Shown here: positions 2,177 to 11,705 of the stretch, piece by piece
Layout: every line of letters starts with the position of its first letter
Numbering within the stretch: the first letter of the stretch is position 1
NCBI GenBank assembly: GCA_040222015.1
Contig: JAVJWO010000151.1
Span: forward strand, 1-15,183
From: Coleofasciculus chthonoplastes F2-STO-03
GTDB taxonomy: Bacteria > Cyanobacteriota > Cyanobacteriia > Cyanobacteriales > Coleofasciculaceae
Direction of reading: 5' to 3'
Length of the DNA stretch: 15,183 nt
The notes under the pieces: model-generated
The model's input: the letters and a program-made list of their open reading frames with translations, nothing else
Database searches by the model: none
Told to the model about the DNA's origin: nothing
Translations under genes and position numbers: made by a program

Positions 2177-3226
2177 ATGACAAAAGCACGGATCGGGCTG
2201 CTATTTGGAGGACTCTCAGGAGAACACGAGGTTTCGATTTGTTCAGCACAAGCGATCGCAAAAGCGTTGAGTACGCCACCGAATACGGATAAGTACGACG
2301 TTTTACCGATTTACATTCAAAAAGATGGCATCTGGCAACCCCCAGACATCGCCCAGCAGGTTTTGGCATCGGGAACGCCTCTAGATACCCATGGAGACGG
2401 AAACCTCTGGCAATTTCCACCTCAGGTGGCTGACGTGGAGGTTTGGTTTCCCATCTTGCACGGACCCAATGGCGAAGATGGCACGATTCAAGGCTTGTTA
2501 ACGTTAATGCAGGTTCCTTGTGTGGGTTCGGGTGTCTTAGGTTCGGCAATGGCAATGGATAAAATTGCCATGAAACAGGTATTTGATCAAGTGGGACTCG
2601 CTCAGGTGAAGTATAAGGGATTGAGTCGCGCCCAGGTGTGGTCTAATCCCTGCGTCTTCCCGAAACTGTGTGATCAGATTGAGGAAACGTTGGGGTATCC
2701 CTGTTTTGTCAAACCTGCTAATTTGGGCTCATCGGTGGGTATTGCCAAAGTGCGATCGCGAAGTGAATTGGAAGCAGCTTTAGATAGTGCCGCCAGTTAT
2801 GATCGCCGGATTGTTGTGGAAGCAGGTGTCGTGGCGCGGGAAGTCGAATGTGCAGTTTTAGGGAATGATAATCCCAAGGCATCTGTGGTGGGTGAAATTA
2901 GTTATACCAGCGATTTCTACGACTATGAAACTAAATATACAGAAGGTCGTGCCACGTTATCGATTCCCGCACCATTACCTGATGGTGTGACTCGTCAGAT
3001 TCAGGAGATGGCACTCAAGGCATTTGCGGCGGTGGATGCGGCGGGTTTGTCACGGGTGGATTTCTTTTATGTAGAGGCGACAGGGGAGGTTTTGATTAAT
3101 GAAGTCAATACCTTACCCGGTTTCACCGCCACCAGTATGTATCCTCAACTGTGGGAAGCTAGTGGTGTACCGTTCCCTCAATTGGTGGATCAGTTGATTG
3201 AATTAGCCAAAGAACGGCAAACCTAA
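2177..3226 (+). CDS. ddl: D-alanine--D-alanine ligase
   Basis: 349 aa; [46 protein letters not shown] and [10 protein letters not shown] motifs. Confidence 0.97.
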
Positions 3227-3237
3227 GTAGAGGCTGC

Positions 3238-3297
3238 TTTGTCATTTGTCATTTGTTATTTGTCATTTGTTATTTGTCATTTGTCATTGGTCATTTG
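3238..3297. repeat. Heptamer tandem repeat (TTTGTCA-like) x8
   Basis: Eight copies with TTTGTTA/TTGGTCA variants, just after the ddl stop. Confidence 0.93.
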
Positions 3298-3309
3298 GAA
3301 ACTGTAGGG

Positions 3310-3607
3310 GCGACCCGCTTGCTCTAATTTTGAACAGACCCCAACTAGATTGCTTGCAATTAGTTGGGGATTCTCTCCTGCTGTTACCACGAAGAGCCGC
3401 TGTTCTCGGTGAATACCAGGAACTTCTGCCTTGGCACTCCTCCCTGCTATTTCTACTAGGGAGCTAAGACTAAAAAAGCCTTATGAACGCACTCTTGTTT
3501 TTACCCAGTCGATGCGTTATTGTAACAAATAATCTCTACTGGAACCCCTAATCTTAAGTTTTCTAGGTTCTGTAGGTCGTGCCGAACAAATAAATGCCGC
3601 CGTACCT
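3310..3607 (-). ncRNA. Putative TnpB omegaRNA (right-end RNA) scaffold plus flank-derived guide
   Basis: Non-coding interior with hairpins (e.g. CTCCCT/AGGGAG, 3440-3463), downstream of an extended -10 and running through the IS right end. Boundaries are inferred. Confidence 0.5.
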
Positions 3608-3692
3608 GTCGGAATTCTACCAAAATTGTTAGTGTTTCGCAGTCCCCCACCTAAATCTTGCGATTTTAGATGGGGACTGCGCTCAACTTTTG
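3330..3692 (-). mobile_element. Non-autonomous IS200/IS605-type mini-element (363 bp, no protein gene)
   Basis: Minus strand: target TTGAA (3697-3693)|CAAAAG..., CAGT guide plus left hairpin CCCCATCTAAAATCGCAAGATTTAGGTGGGG. Right end: GAAT plus related hairpin CCCCAACTAATTGCAAGCAATCTAGTTGGGG, ending TTCAA at 3330. Confidence 0.8.
3614..3622 (-). promoter_or_regulatory. Extended -10 promoter element (TGGTAGAAT) inside the mini-IS left end
   Basis: TGn-TAGAAT just inside the left-end hairpin, the same position as TGCTACAAT in the element at 15018. Confidence 0.5.
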
Positions 3693-3750
3693 TTCAACAC
3701 CAGTCCATTCAATTGGGTCGGGTCGCCCTTTACTTAAGATTGTAGATTGT

Positions 3751-5915: not shown

Positions 5916-6095
5916 GTATCTATCCTGATGAGAAACGCTATAATCGCTGTCGCAGTCGTTCTTCAAAGCTCCGTTTCAACCTAAATTGAGCGTTAGCCAT
6001 GCCTTGGATGAGGGTATCGAGTTCTGCTTGCGGTGGCTTCTTCGTTTGCACCCAAGCCTCAAGAATATCGGGCAAAGTCAGATGGGGTTCAACAC

Positions 6096-7250
6096 ATGAA
6101 CATGAATTACGAAATTCTAGGTCAGCGCCTGCGGCTAGCGCGTGAGCGATCTCGAATAAGTCAAACTGAAGCCGCTCAAGTTATAGATGTCACGGCGGCA
6201 GCTCTAAACCAGTATGAGAGCGGGAAGCGTCGGGTGGATGCTCTTACCTTGGAGCGTCTATCTCGGCTTTACGGAGTACCCCTGCGATCGCTGTTTGGCG
6301 AAGAAACCGTTCAATCCGACTGGGAAGAAGCATTACGGCTTAATTCTGAAACTATTTCGGCTTCGAGTAAAGCGGAAATTGCCCGTTTGATTGAAAAAAT
6401 TTATGTCCTAGAGGAACTCTATACTCAGACAGACACTCCTTTTCCTGGCGTTTCTCATCCACCTTTTGCTCCTCTTGCCAATCGCCTCTTGCCGGAAACT
6501 GAGACGGCGATGTTAGCGGCTCAAAAGGCTCGATATCACTACAACTTGGGAATGGCTCCTCTAGTTAATTTACGAATTTTCTTAGAGGCTCAAGGATTAA
6601 TGATATTTATCATTCCCTTTGGCAAGGAACAAAATGCTATTTCTGGACTATTTTTGTCTCATCAGAAACTGGGAAATATTATTGCTATTAACCAAACTCA
6701 GACTGATACTCGTCTCTCTTTTAGCTTGGCTCATGGATTAGCTCATCGTCTCTATCAACATGACCAATCTGCTATTCTTTGTCACCATGAAGATACTAAT
6801 CCGTTGGAATGTTTTGCTGAAAAATTTGCTGGCTATTTCCTGATTCCTTCAGCAGCATTGCAGGAACGTTTACATAGTCTGGGAGTAAAACGGGTTAGGC
6901 ATCCGGCGGAAGTTGTGCATTTAGCGCACTATTTCGGCGTTAGCTATGAAGAAATGTTAATTCGATTGGATTGGGAACATCAACTCGCAGGTTCTCAGGA
7001 AGACTTTAAGCAGATTCAGTCCGCACATTTATCTCGAAACTTGGGTTATAGTTCTTACTTTGAGAGTGGAGAGGGGTTTATTCCTGTGGAAAAACGTTTA
7101 CCCAGAATCTTCCTCGAACTTGCCTATCGTGCTGTTCTAGCGGACAAGTTATCCCTGCGGCGGGTAGCGGAAATGTTGGGTATTAGCGATATTGAATTAG
7201 AGGATCGTCTGTTTATGACTGAGCAAACACTTGAAGAAATTGCCAGTTAA
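6096..7250 (+). CDS. XRE-HTH / ImmA-IrrE (peptidase M78-like) fusion with degenerate zinc-peptidase motif
   Basis: N-terminal HTH (LGQRLRLARERSRISQTEAA...LNQYESGKR); SGLF, FSLAHGLAH (HExxH with E>G), ECFAEKFAGYFLIP, LAHYFGVS; C-terminal LSLRRVAEMLGI. ATG at 6096/6102 preferred over GTG 6033. Confidence 0.88.
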   Translation: MNMNYEILGQRLRLARERSRISQTEAAQVIDVTAAALNQYESGKRRVDALTLERLSRLYGVPLRSLFGEETVQSDWEEALRLNSETISASSKAEIARLIEKIYVLEELYTQTDTPFPGVSHPPFAPLANRLLPETETAMLAAQKARYHYNLGMAPLVNLRIFLEAQGLMIFIIPFGKEQNAISGLFLSHQKLGNIIAINQTQTDTRLSFSLAHGLAHRLYQHDQSAILCHHEDTNPLECFAEKFAGYFLIPSAALQERLHSLGVKRVRHPAEVVHLAHYFGVSYEEMLIRLDWEHQLAGSQEDFKQIQSAHLSRNLGYSSYFESGEGFIPVEKRLPRIFLELAYRAVLADKLSLRRVAEMLGISDIELEDRLFMTEQTLEEIAS

Positions 7251-7508: not shown

Positions 7509-9092
7509 CTATTGTGGCTTGAATACATCAAGATGTTCCAATAATGTAACTTCATTGGCAACTTTGTTTACATCAGAAAATATTTGAAAATCATTACACT
7601 CTCTAAAAATATCGCATTTATTTTCATGTATTGCTTTGACAATTGGATTAGTGAAACTGTAAGTTTCTTTTAATTTATCTTCCAGATTATTAGATTTGAT
7701 AAAATAGACAATCCAAGAAATTAAATAAATATTATCCATTTCTCGTGATTTCAGTTTTTGAAGAAATTCTTCAAGATGTTCAACTATAGAGTCTTTGTGT
7801 GAGCCAACATTAGATTTCAATATGGATTCTATAATCGCTATAATTTTTGGGAATGACTTTATTCTTAAATCTGCAAGCATGAGCAATAAGCTTATCACTT
7901 TAGGTAAAGTCTTATTATCGAAGGTGATACCTATCTTGTAGTTTTTGTCTACAAAGTTTTTGTCTACAATGTCAGCCAAAAAACGGTCGATAACACCACA
8001 ACCTGGATTGTTTTTATCAATTCTGATAACAGATAAATAGACCTCTTTAAATCCTTCAAAATCATATTGCTTTTTGTTTTCAGGATTGATATTGTAATAC
8101 TCCGATCTCCAATTTCTGAATAAACCATTCGGAAGACTGTAAAACTCAGTCTTACCATCATTAAGTTCAAGATTATATTCTTTTAATGCTGACTGTAAAG
8201 ATTTTATGGTTGATCGTCCACTCAATTCATCTTTGGCAAGGATACGATAATCATCTTTGAACCTGACTACAACAACTTTATCAATCAATGGTTCATCAGT
8301 CACATCAGTCAGCGATTTAGATAGCTGCCTATCTACCCCTGATAGAACCACTTCAGAGATGATGTCTGATACAGCAGGACCAATCGGTATTCCATTAGTG
8401 CAACCATCATTAGCATTCTGAAACAGCTTATCTAGACAATTTCCTACCAAATTAAAGTTGTTTCGGTTCGGGTTTCCCCTTTCATCCTTTTCATTCCTAA
8501 TAAATTCTTTCCCATGTAATGCCCACGGTATACTATGTGTGTAAATAGAAGGATAAAAGTTCTTGATGTCAGTTTTAATTAAATATTTGTACTGGAAAGC
8601 TATGGAAGCGACATCATTTTCCGCCATCTCGATCCATTCATAAATCATTCTGCCACTTCTCAAGCCACCGATTTCTCCTGGATTATTATCATCTACAGGT
8701 ATAGGAAAACTATAGGTACAAACTTGATTGTCTTGATGAAAAATGCAATTTAGTATTTCATCCCAGTGTTGGGCAATTAGATATGCAATGTCTGAATGGA
8801 TTTTTGGGTGTATAATCCCAAAAGTTCTATCTGTTAAGTCTGTTTTTGGAAAATGTATTTGCTGAATTTAATGAAGGTCTGGTTTAAATTTTGTCTTGCC
8901 ATTATTATGCTGTGTTACTGGAAAGTAAGGTTGCCCAAAATTCGGATGCTGGGTCACTTCAAAACAGGGTGTTAACACGTAAGCCTCTGGAAAGTAACCT
9001 TTGGTTACTAACCAATCATAGATATCAGATTTAGTCAGTGCTTTGACAAGCTCATTTGTGCGTTGGAAGTGCTCTTTCGGATTACGGCTCAT
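7509..9092 (-). pseudogene. Abi/UG-type (AbiK/DRT-like) reverse transcriptase, 527 codons, one in-frame TAA at 8868-8870
   Basis: The 74-aa and 384-aa ORFs are in the same frame, and the sequence between them is open (IQQIHFPKTDLTDRTFGIIHPKIH...YSFPIP). Motifs: GYFPE, TDIKNFYPSIYTHSIPWALHG, GIPIGPAVSDIISE, RFKDDY, LELNDGKT; long helical C-terminus. Confidence 0.85.
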
Positions 9093-9137: not shown

Positions 9138-11594
9138 TTAACTAGAATTCAAGTAAACATTTGGTATATCTCTTACAAAAAAACTTGTTTCCTTATGATA
9201 GCCTTTAAAATCCCTTGAGGAAGCGGAAATAAACAATCTTTGTTTTGCCCTAGTCATAGCAACATAAAATAACCGCCTTTCCTCCTCTAGCTTATTGTCG
9301 CGTACACTGAAAAAAGTGGGAAACTCATCCTCAGTCGCACCCGCAATAAAAACGGTGTCAAATTCCAAACCTTTGGACTGATGCACCGTGATAATCGGAA
9401 CCTGATTATCATCTTGAGACACTTGATCCAAGTTCTTAGCCAGGGCAGTAAATTCAAGAATGGTGCGTAAAGCGGTGTCCGGGTGCAAATCCGGATTATC
9501 CTGATCCTGAAAGATTCGGATAAGCTGTAACAAGTTTTGCTGTCGTTTTTCGTCTGACTGGTAATATTTGTAGAGTCCCGATTCAACCATCAATTTATTC
9601 AACAGTTCTGCAGGTCGCATGGTTTCGCTGGCATCGCGCCACTTGTCCATCTGTTCAGCCAATTCCTCAAACTCATCGCCGTAGCGATACACCAACGCTT
9701 GACGATAATCCACTCTACGTTCAACCAGTGGAATGAGTCGGGCTAGCAAATCAATCGTGGTTTTCACATCATCCATTGCCTGATGACTTGGCAAATGTTC
9801 AAGCTTTAAATGCTTGGCTAAGGTTTCCAAATTGTAGCGTTCTGCTTCAATAAAACGATTGGCTAACTCTAGCGTGTCTTCCCATCGCAGCTTGGGAACG
9901 GATATACCAACTTTTTGGGCTTGGGCTGTTACCATCTTGATGTCAAAACCGACATTATGCCCAACCAGCATGGCATTTCCCACAAACTCGAAGAACTCGC
10001 GGAAAACCTCTTTAGCCGCTCTACCCTGTTCGGCTAAAAAACGATCGCTATGTCCATGTATCCACTCCGAGTCACCAACAGTTACAGTATTGGTAATATA
10101 GGCATGAAACTGGTTCTGTGGCTGCCCTTTAACCAAACGAACGGCGGCAATTTCGACAACCTCATCCTGACTAACCGAAAATCCGGTTGTTTCTACATCA
10201 AAGACAATCACTGTACCAGATGCATAGGCACTCAACAGCTCACTAAATGGATCGCAATTAATGAACGTTTGCAGGGATACCATATCTGTCAGTCTGAAGC
10301 CACAATCCTTACCCGCTTCAATGACATTTTTGATCGTTACCTCTCCGATTCCCCGACTTGGGCGGAGCAACATCCGGCGCATTGAACCTGTATCAAATGG
10401 GTTCAAAACTAGACGTAAGTACGCTAAAGCATCTTTCACTTCCTGGCGCATGAAAAATTGGAATCGTTCAACCGTGACGCAGGGAATTCTCATTCGTTCC
10501 AATCTCTGGCTGACAACTTCTGTTCGCCTATGGTTACGAGCCAGAACCGCCACTCGACTGTAGGCAAAATCTGGGCGATTATCGGCTAATTTCTGAATCT
10601 GTTTGCCAATCCACTGCGCCTCGGCTTGTTCATCTTTGGCGACATGAACTCGAATTGGTTCTCCGATTTCACAATCTGGGGAAGGTGTAATCTGTGTTTG
10701 TCGATGCTCAAAGGAATCAGCAAACCCAGACGCCGCTTTTAACAGTGTTTTTGTGGCGCGATAGTTCCATATTAAAGAATACTCTGTGGGTTTAAAGTCG
10801 CGCTGAAATTGTGCAATGACTTGAGCAGGTTGAGAGCCTCGCCATTCGTAAATTGTCTGATCTAAATCCCCAATCATCGCGAGATTGCCACTACGAGAGG
10901 CTAAATGGCTGACAATGCTGTATTCCGAAAGATGAGTATCTTGCACTTCATCAACTTGAACGAAATCAAACTTGGACGCCCAACGCTGGCTAATCTCTGG
11001 TTGATGAGCGAACATTGCCCGAACATAGAAAAGTAGATCCCCAAAGTCGAGAACATGACGTTTTTCCAGGATGGCTTGGTATCGAGCCGCATCTTTAGCG
11101 CGATCGCTTCCTAATGAGGCATACACTTGTTCTAGTGCAGCACTGAGGGAGAGTTGGAGGTGACTGGCTTTAATTTTGCAGTTAGCCAGGTTAAAGAATA
11201 ACTCCTGGGCATCTCGATCCTTCGAGACACCAAAGACTTCCTTGATCAGTTCAATACAGTCTGCATCATCATAAATCACAAAATCTGCTGGTAATCCAAG
11301 GGGACAAGCCTCGATCCGCAGCATAGAAGCACACAACCCGTGAAAGGTTTTGATTGTCAAAAAGGGCAACTGCTCTGGACAATACTGAGATAGACGCTCA
11401 CTCATCTGTTGAGCCGCTCGATTCGTGAACGTCAGGCAAAGAATTTTTTGAGGCGAAATACCTGTATTTATGGCATGAACCACTCGCTCGGCTAAAACGC
11501 GAGTCTTGCCCGTACCAACGGGAGCCAGTACCAAAACTGCACCTTGGGTATGCTTCGCGATCGCACTCTGTTGGGAGTTAAGTTCGTGTTTCAT
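9138..11594 (-). CDS. UvrD/PcrA-like SF1 helicase with inserted DEDDh (DnaQ-like) 3'-5' exonuclease
   Basis: LNSQQ, APVGTGKT, LTFTNRAA, VDEVQD, GDLDQTIYEWRG, NYR, TVHQSKGLEFD and EERRLFYVAMTRAK. Exonuclease FDVETTG / GHNVGFD / HQAMDD at ~9760-10210. Start at MKHELN (11594) preferred. Confidence 0.93.
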   Translation of the reverse strand: MKHELNSQQSAIAKHTQGAVLVLAPVGTGKTRVLAERVVHAINTGISPQKILCLTFTNRAAQQMSERLSQYCPEQLPFLTIKTFHGLCASMLRIEACPLGLPADFVIYDDADCIELIKEVFGVSKDRDAQELFFNLANCKIKASHLQLSLSAALEQVYASLGSDRAKDAARYQAILEKRHVLDFGDLLFYVRAMFAHQPEISQRWASKFDFVQVDEVQDTHLSEYSIVSHLASRSGNLAMIGDLDQTIYEWRGSQPAQVIAQFQRDFKPTEYSLIWNYRATKTLLKAASGFADSFEHRQTQITPSPDCEIGEPIRVHVAKDEQAEAQWIGKQIQKLADNRPDFAYSRVAVLARNHRRTEVVSQRLERMRIPCVTVERFQFFMRQEVKDALAYLRLVLNPFDTGSMRRMLLRPSRGIGEVTIKNVIEAGKDCGFRLTDMVSLQTFINCDPFSELLSAYASGTVIVFDVETTGFSVSQDEVVEIAAVRLVKGQPQNQFHAYITNTVTVGDSEWIHGHSDRFLAEQGRAAKEVFREFFEFVGNAMLVGHNVGFDIKMVTAQAQKVGISVPKLRWEDTLELANRFIEAERYNLETLAKHLKLEHLPSHQAMDDVKTTIDLLARLIPLVERRVDYRQALVYRYGDEFEELAEQMDKWRDASETMRPAELLNKLMVESGLYKYYQSDEKRQQNLLQLIRIFQDQDNPDLHPDTALRTILEFTALAKNLDQVSQDDNQVPIITVHQSKGLEFDTVFIAGATEDEFPTFFSVRDNKLEEERRLFYVAMTRAKQRLFISASSRDFKGYHKETSFFVRDIPNVYLNSS

Positions 11595-11705
11595 CTTGAC
11601 CAACACTACGTTTACGGAGTGTATGCCAAGCGCGATCACCCCTCAGCCAGCTTTACTGCTTTCTAACTTTATAGCTCATCTTATAGTTCATCAGCAATAA
11701 TCAAA

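Follow-up and report, generated by a model that had tools for sequence, protein, structure and literature searches.

What is the protein-free segment that lies downstream of ddl at this locus, and what would keep it there? The window (the whole 15,183-nucleotide stretch that was analyzed) is contig C151 of G000, a 7.7-Mb genome assembly in 219 contigs, and the gene at 2177-3226 is presumably ddl, judged from its sequence. An earlier note on this DNA had read the segment as a mobile element, and every feature that it listed on the minus strand was found in place (two hairpins, CAGT, GAAT, TCAA, an extended -10 box, and TTGAA). We found that 3692-3330 on the minus strand, 363 bases in all, is a protein-free, nonautonomous element of the IS605 family (a PATE) that has moved recently. 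The sequence was present in more than one copy, its flanks were not conserved, an empty allele exists, and it resembles sequence at the ends of tnpB genes, all of which supports the mobile-element reading. The features are collected in Table 1.

Table 1. Positions of the element, its parts, and its flanks in the window
Feature	Positions	Strand	Basis
Palindromic repeat of the host, type GGGCGACCC...GGGTCGCCCCTAC, interrupted by the element and external to it (parts 3729-3693 and 3329-3304)	3304..3729	.	108 flank look-alikes
Host pentamer TTGAA: target of TnpA insertion, predicted TAM of TnpB	3693..3697	-	Precedes 16/16 left ends; present in the empty allele
Left end, with a subterminal hairpin (3675-3645) preceded by the guide CAGT (3679-3676)	3630..3692	-	Common to the autonomous element G000:C195; ssDNA fold
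Extended -10 box TGnTAGAAT; inferred transcription start ~3608-3606	3614..3622	-	Conservation in alignment
5' hairpin P1 (GGT-A-CG-GC ... GC-A-CG-ACC), probable descendant of the tnpB-ORF hairpin (codons DGTV..DID)	3575..3606	-	Fold; shared pattern
Lineage-specific structured linker: hairpin 3570-3542, possible pseudoknot (3542-3535/3512-3505; 3517-3513/3491-3486), hairpin 3483-3464	3464..3574	-	
Putative core of the omegaRNA, homologous to tnpB 3' ends, with a hairpin, a stem (3440-3411) round GGCAGAAGTTCC (3430-3419), and a long-range helix (3405-3400 with 3337-3332)	3330..3463	-	
Right end, with hairpin 3369-3339 after the guide GAAT (3373-3370) and cleavage at TCAA (3333-3330)	3330..3373	-	Sequence; genome copies
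Flank AATTAGAGCAAGCGGGTCGC, predicted guide (16-20 nt)	3310..3329	-	Equal to the empty allele in G001, G002, and G007; guide role by analogy with ISDra2 (PMC8612924, accessible text)

Copies, ends, and the empty site

A BLAST search with the element gave 35 matches in its own genome, among them five full copies of 363 to 384 nt that were 77 to 98% alike, the rest being fragments, many of them at contig ends. The copies sit behind TTGAA and end in TTCAA: all 16 left-end matches with upstream sequence extended to the pentamer, with a variable base preceding it, and the right end GGGTCTGTTCAA was present at 13 places, 12 of which had a 3' flank, each a different one. The five full copies and the fragments, with the same ends and differing flanks, are what the earlier note had predicted for the genome. 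Among 60 relatives, 15 gave BLAST matches; G003, G004, G008, and G017 carried full or near-full copies, and the other matching relatives had end fragments. As expected of a PATE, the element has near-terminal palindromes without terminal inverted repeats, is too short for a transposase, is multicopy, and has ends in common with a tnpA element. Its region folded better than 100/100 shuffled versions (z, -4.56), with both terminal hairpins contributing, and the pairs CAGT/TGAA and GAAT/TCAA agree with the guide pairing rule of IS608.

In the window copy, bases 3' of the left hairpin lengthen the stem across the CAGT guide, with a predicted energy of -15.7 kcal/mol versus -11.1 kcal/mol in a 97% twin (ssDNA fold, in which C195 was also compared). 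Because the left-end guide is predicted to be paired, the window copy is possibly stuck, and it may now be poorly excised within a family that is still mobile. Other derivatives were seen as well. Elements of 65 nt (G000:C210:12626-12695, L043, and L044) join the start of the left end to the finish of the right end via one hairpin, and G005 has a core-deleted copy (L036) where G004 has a full one. In two mini copies (L034 and L075), the -10 box is interrupted at an identical position by inserts of ~100 to 125 nt with a short motif repeated at their flanks; these inserts are another small mobile repeat.

At the orthologous ddl locus, the element was seen in none of the eight congeners examined, and three of them (G001, G002, and G007) carried the exact empty site, TTGAA followed directly by AATTAGAGC, matching the empty allele that had been predicted behind TTGAA. 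The exact empty allele therefore shows insertion 3' of TTGAA without target duplication. Of the remaining congeners, G005 reads TTGGA at this position, the contig of G004 ends early, and G003, G006, and G008 are without the repeat; the locus of G017 gave no anchor for the comparison. When empty sites for nine relatives' copies were sought in G000, one was found, with TTAAA. Look-alikes of the flank with up to 4 mismatches occurred at 108 sites in G000, none of them behind TTGAA. No TTGAA with a perfect 16-nt guide site was found in G000 for the guides of 13 right ends, and the window guide had one perfect 20-nt match elsewhere in the genome, behind TTAGA. This lack of self-targets is consistent with an active system, yet it is equally expected by chance for unique flanks.

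The split repeat belongs to a REP-like palindromic family (window 3304-3329 and 3693-3729) of more than 100 copies, and a mini of G004 (L073) is inserted in the same repeat family at a different TTGAA. The transposase of this repeat may be among the weak Y1 matches in G000. Heptamer tandem repeats of the TTTGTCA type lie at window 3238-3297 and 2046-2088 and are abundant genome-wide.

Helper genes, core, and promoter

An element with the same left end as the mini lies behind TTGAA in contig C195 of G000 and encodes a divergent tnpA (140 amino acids; PF01797 E value, 1e-35) together with a 470-amino-acid tnpB. A second tnpB, in contig C159, is 87% identical to that of C195 and stands beside an eroded tnpA. 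The RuvC D/E/D residues are intact in both TnpB proteins and in 29/29 open reading frames (ORFs) of the family. C195-type TnpB scores below the curated cutoffs of PF01385, PF07282, and NF040570 and above that of TIGR01766, and, judged from sequence, these proteins are a divergent TnpB clade, of which only these two members were found in G000. The genome overall has 75 PF07282 (TnpB C-terminal) matches and few intact-looking Y1 transposases. The C195 TnpA is most likely the mobilizer of the mini, as the shared left end and the intact TnpA suggest.

A full-length parent with tnpB had also been predicted for the mini. The intact tnpA-tnpB element of C195 answers to this prediction with its left end, and no parent was found that has the mini's interior or its right end: C195 and C159 end in GTGCGTTCAA versus GTCTGTTCAA in the mini, and BLAST links them to it at the left end only. 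A search for the right-end pattern in genome contigs gave 23 loci, none with TnpB; an interior 17-mer gave 77 metagenome loci, of which two were real minis and none had TnpB; and interior DNA gave only chance-level matches against 400 genomes of the phylum. A model of the 5' domain (R2) found minis or fragments only in 150 genomes of the order, 40 of the family, and 7 of the G511 family. Genes of the C195-type TnpB family, some of them broken, were present in 5/6 genomes with a full or near-full mini. In G511 (90% complete), which carries a mini, the TnpB query found no match.

The earlier note had recognized no tnpB remnant in the element, which was wrong for the 3' 135 nt. By alignment, this stretch is a remnant of the tnpB 3' end, i.e., the omegaRNA core of the C195-type TnpB family. 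With the loop motif GGCARAAGTTCC as anchor, four minis aligned with 13 tnpB ends over ~100 columns without gaps, bar one single-base insertion, and the core reads GRSS..PRT in the tnpB frame. The core profile score was 46.2, compared with -2.4 ± 3.8 for 150 shuffles (z, 12.7; 0/150 as good). The terminal helix joins six bases located at a constant distance (+25) from the loop motif to the six that precede the last two of the element. It was fully paired (6/6) in 21 of the 22 tnpB loci scored, out of 30 examined (three were without a C terminus and five fell outside the motif pattern), with the best candidate end taken as the 3' partner. The mini has a terminal helix of its own, GAACAG:CTGTTC, whose pairing is full with none of the eight other types; its right-end difference from C195 is accounted for because it is compensated within this helix.

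Compensatory changes also bear out the structured omegaRNA scaffold that had been predicted. Among nine minis, double changes occurred in 11 of 51 chosen pairs (0/500 shuffles; 0 to 2 in sliding controls), counts that come from nine related rows with the structure chosen from the same rows. Four of the 11 pairs lie in the stem round the motif and two in the terminal helix, and these six are outside the TnpA hairpin. A diverged copy in another family (L225, in G511) keeps the ends, a TATAAT box, the 5' domain, and the core, with compensatory changes. The terminal helix was thus shown to covary across TnpB loci and minis, as would be expected under selection on structure. The element has two hallmarks of an omegaRNA: a scaffold homologous to the tnpB 3' end that abuts the right end and has its terminal bases in a long-range helix. 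At one spot in the core loop motif, a small palindromic insert of ~24 to 45 nt occurs in a mini and in tnpB ends alike (L072, L090, L247, and L262) and resembles the small repeats that attack PATEs.

Most members of the family carry the -10 box as TATAAT, and the box is conserved among them; in other lineages, -10-like boxes precede P1. A sigma-70 promoter scan of the element found none, because the scan demands a -35 box. We compared 4 of 22 metatranscriptome runs (X1, X2, X3, and X10), the contigs of which are unstranded. In X1, one 281-nt contig at a depth of 3.4 covered 3330-3599 plus 11 foreign bases past the right end, and the left end and ddl had no cover; in X10, a 311-nt contig at a depth of 6.1 covered 3329-3546 plus 80 flank bases and stopped elsewhere than the X1 contig. 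Parts left uncovered in these two runs prove nothing alone. X2 and X3 covered the whole kilobase evenly, like DNA. The X1 and X10 contigs are a weak hint of an RNA running from ~3607 across the right end.

A hairpin inside tnpB and in ORF-free lineages

A core model built from minis and tnpB cores (R1) had matches in 35 of 150 genomes of the order, and we inspected 40 of the ~150 places listed, with short ones favored, plus 12 others. These places contained about seven ORF-free lineages (labeled A to G) across the order that do not form one clade. They share the left end, a -10-like box, a 5' hairpin, a linker, the core, and the right end; most start with the hairpin just after the -10 box, and 70 to 192 nt separate hairpin and motif. 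The terminal helix was paired 6/6 in 17 of the 20 ORF-free elements tabulated. In a tree of core and right end (29 rows and 163 columns), which is weakened by the short alignment and by end swapping, 16 minis formed one clade in 0% of bootstrap trees (p-AU, 0.018); lineages C, F, and G nested among C195-type ends, and the window lineage (A) stood apart from them. Besides the window lineage, at least four ORF-free lineages of promoter plus omegaRNA occur in this TnpB clade across the order (L249, L252, L273, L280, L282-L286, L289-L291, L294, L276-L279, and L293), with TTGAA or TTGAG as targets, TTCAT, TTCAC, or TTCAA as ends, and four near-identical copies in G047. Lineage F at L296-L298 (G198, G206, and G064) has the same place and 3' flank in three genomes and an eroded left end, and it is possibly an immobilized, domesticated guide RNA with a fixed guide.

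The tnpB genes themselves showed a second constrained segment. In 29 dereplicated ORFs (of 47 found in 72 loci), the median excess identity of synonymous codons was 0.056, and two peaks stood out clearly, one at DGTV..GDID just after the RuvC-I aspartate (0.33 to 0.54) and one in the 3' core (0.41 to 0.45); smaller signals were seen near codons 285 to 303 (0.11 to 0.14) and in a gappy window at the extreme C terminus (0.27). A threonine codon is ACT in 29/29 genes and an isoleucine codon ATA in 28/29, versus family usage of 34% and 18%. In C195, the DGTV..GDID segment lies 573 nt upstream of the core motif; it folds into a hairpin, and the codon data suggest that it is under selection at the RNA level. 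Covariation within the coding hairpin was not above that of shuffles (139/500 for double changes), and its pairs hardly vary.

The 62 nt that directly follow the -10 box matched the place of the tnpB hairpin in 3/3 tested copies of lineages F and G (0/100 shuffles) and in one copy of lineage B (2/100), and gave no significant match there in the other 15 of the 19 copies, the window copy included. A covariance model of the coding hairpin (R3) was significant only for L245, L296, and L301 among 27 loci (E values, 4e-7 to 5e-3). The 5' hairpin of lineages F and G was thus shown, at the level of alignment, to be a retained copy of the tnpB-ORF hairpin, and lineages B and C likely retain it too. 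The P1 pattern with complementary middle pairs, which was written after the sequences had been inspected, occurred in 27/29 ORFs and in 19/33 stand-alone loci (not in D, E, or short forms), and its 14 places in G000 were eight minis, two tnpBs, and four unrelated sites. For the window copy itself, 63/100 shuffles did as well as P1 in a direct profile test against the tnpB hairpin, and the covariance model of the coding hairpin had no match at P1. The window P1 is probably of tnpB origin by way of a chain of intermediates.

The 5' domain as a whole did not match known families: 3606-3464 had no Rfam match at E values up to 10. Three double changes in the linker trace to the diverged G511 copy, and G017 adds another. 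A group I intron or IStron remnant was rejected, as RF00028 misses every copy, the domain is unlike the introns of the genome itself, the G511 copy breaks the supposed P7, and the element ends in A where an IStron ends in G. An IscB/IsrB omegaRNA (HEARO) was likewise dismissed (no Rfam match at E values up to 10; interior TnpB derived). A reading of the whole 5' domain as the eroded last 300 nt of tnpB, plausible to the eye, found no support (no nhmmer match; summed pairwise z, -0.7 to 1.0; profile z, 0.0). A tRNA group I intron at G000:C192:73458-73618 (L221) has an apparent ORF after its core, possibly encoding a homing endonuclease.

Proposed mode of retention, rival readings, and known systems

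The explanation that we favor, and hold to be more likely than not, is that of a PATE that borrows both TnpA and TnpB, has its own promoter, is retained by omegaRNA guidance, and carries a P1 derived from tnpB. A Y1 transposase made elsewhere would excise the minus strand between TTGAA and TCAA, and the excised strand would insert 3' of other TTGAA sites without duplication; the enzyme is a presumed one, and the mobility and the boundaries are observed. The element's own extended -10 promoter would then yield an RNA of ~290 to 300 nt that starts at ~3607 and runs through the right end to the flanking DNA. On the model of ISDra2 and ISGst, the 3' 135 nt of this RNA would fold as the omegaRNA core and load TnpB supplied in trans, and the first 16 to 20 flank bases would direct TnpB to cut the empty allele behind its TTGAA. 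Repair of the cut allele from the filled chromosome copy would retain the element. P1, for which mid-ORF mRNA of tnpB is the most likely source, probably matters for making, stabilizing, or loading the omegaRNA, because the mid-ORF hairpin of tnpB appears to be under RNA-level selection. In the core tree, the mini lineage does not group as sister to the ends of the resident TnpB genes, which therefore encode no more than candidate partners.

That same tree position could mean that the RNA was selected with a TnpB subfamily that is now missing, so that the cassette moves by borrowed TnpA and the resident TnpB cannot use its RNA. The right end, GTCTGTTCAA versus GTGCGTTCAA in C195, with no matching parent found, points the same way, as do the weaker -10 box and one broken linker pair of the window copy. 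We nevertheless consider such an orphaned guide unlikely, since the terminal helix compensates for the right-end difference, 5/6 genomes with full or near-full copies have genes of the TnpB family (some broken), and copies up to 98% alike still spread. If the transcript instead titrated TnpB or TnpA and dampened autonomous elements without a guided cut, it would resemble the PATE RNAs that, as speculated in the accessible part of PMC4615843, compete for TnpA, and P1 could be inhibitory, as is the AmaTnpB mRNA segment that inhibits cleavage in the text available for PMC10278001. The guide-adjacent terminal helix is kept by compensatory changes, however, a contig passes the right end into the flank, and a selfish mobile element would presumably profit more from homing than from damping its helper, so that a decoy or regulatory role seems quite improbable. 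Least credible to us is a passive deletion remnant in which only the ends matter and the interior is functionless leftover tnpB DNA: end-only 65-nt and core-deleted versions exist and the interior is partly tnpB derived, but compensatory changes fall outside the TnpA hairpins, the -10 box persists among diverged copies and among lineages, and several separately placed lineages keep promoter, 5' hairpin, and core and lose the rest.

A narrower doubt leaves the favored explanation standing and makes the window P1 a generic 5' stabilizing stem unrelated to the hairpin within tnpB. The negative profile and covariance-model tests, the post hoc nature of the uniting pattern with its four unrelated places out of 14 in G000, and coding-hairpin covariation that is no better than that of shuffles (139/500) all suit a generic stem, which we regard as a possibility of some weight and still doubtful. 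Against it stand the chain of intermediates with compensated middle pairs, the same place right after the -10 box, and lineage C, the most P1-like among C195-type ends, which is sister to F, whose P1 matches tnpB significantly. Only tentatively do we propose a two-part omegaRNA, in which the ORF hairpin after the RuvC-I aspartate and the 3' core would both be needed to build or license the ribonucleoprotein and the minis would have arisen several times by joining promoter, hairpin, and core. If so, the minis are natural minimal single-guide RNAs that show the real needs of the enzyme, and guides made of nothing but the 3' end would perform badly or not at all.

Parts of this picture are already in print, as far as the accessible texts go: PATEs, an expressed PATE RNA, omegaRNA-bearing PATEs that need TnpB in trans, and stand-alone omegaRNAs (PMC10055086, PMC10691335, PMC4615843, and PMC3119063). 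According to the portion of Meers et al. (PMC10055086) that was available, PATEs often encode omegaRNAs requiring TnpB in trans. The PATE-like ISGst elements of Geobacillus stearothermophilus described there are likewise minimal, ORF-less IS200/IS605 elements with ends common to tnpA/tnpB elements, and their description in that portion includes no internal promoter, 5' domain, or ORF-internal hairpin; the window element also differs in its TnpB clade, its TTGAA target, and its covariation and empty-site evidence. The PATEs of Haloquadratum walsbyi (PMC3119063, in part) similarly have near-terminal palindromes without terminal inverted repeats or target duplication, are too short for a transposase, and include core-deleted forms and attack by small repeats. 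The transcribed PATE VNG_R0052 of Halobacterium salinarum (PMC4615843, accessible sections) is a 99-nt fusion of left and right ends, in contrast to the predicted ~290-nt RNA, full omegaRNA core, and internal promoter of the window element.

The stand-alone OMEGA omegaRNAs in the available text of PMC10691335 are also mobilized without effector or transposase, and theirs were shown to act in trans with compatible effectors. In the ISDra2 system, the scaffold likewise overlaps the tnpB 3' end and the right end, the guide comes from the flank, and the TAM is the TnpA target (PMC8612924, in part); its terminal bases also lie in a long-range pseudoknot helix (PMC10097598, in part), which the helix seen here from covariation parallels. 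ISDra2 differs, in what these sources provide, in that its RNA is encoded in cis with tnpB and has a contiguous 116-nt scaffold, whereas here the ORF holds a further constrained RNA element 573 nt upstream of the core. A distal mRNA segment also affects AmaTnpB, but it adjoins RuvC-II and inhibits (PMC10278001, accessible text). In the literature searched, mostly at the level of abstracts with parts of some open-access texts, no ORF-internal tnpB hairpin kept in gene-less elements was found. What our analysis would add is about seven ORF-free lineages, most of whose predicted RNAs start with a hairpin, shown in two of them to be a copy of the tnpB-ORF hairpin. The stand-alone omegaRNAs tested in a 2021 study were reportedly of IscB type with a 5' guide; the window RNA would be of TnpB type with a 3' guide.

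The element offers what looks like a clean natural case for homing of a TnpB-type PATE via borrowed TnpB, with the empty site and the candidate TAM, guide, and helper genes all identified. Should the ORF hairpin belong to the functional guide or act as a control switch, this would change omegaRNA design in the clade and bear on how TnpB guides are made and regulated. Elsewhere in the window, the 384-amino-acid ORF at 7509-8663 (minus strand) is presumably reverse transcriptase-like, judged by eye from DIKNFYPSI, GIPIGP, and FKDD. Its neighborhood, with 8868-9092 (minus strand) and 6033-7250 (plus strand), seems to include a gene of HTH/peptidase type and, at 9138-11639, a helicase resembling UvrD that carries an exonuclease domain, and is possibly a defense island.
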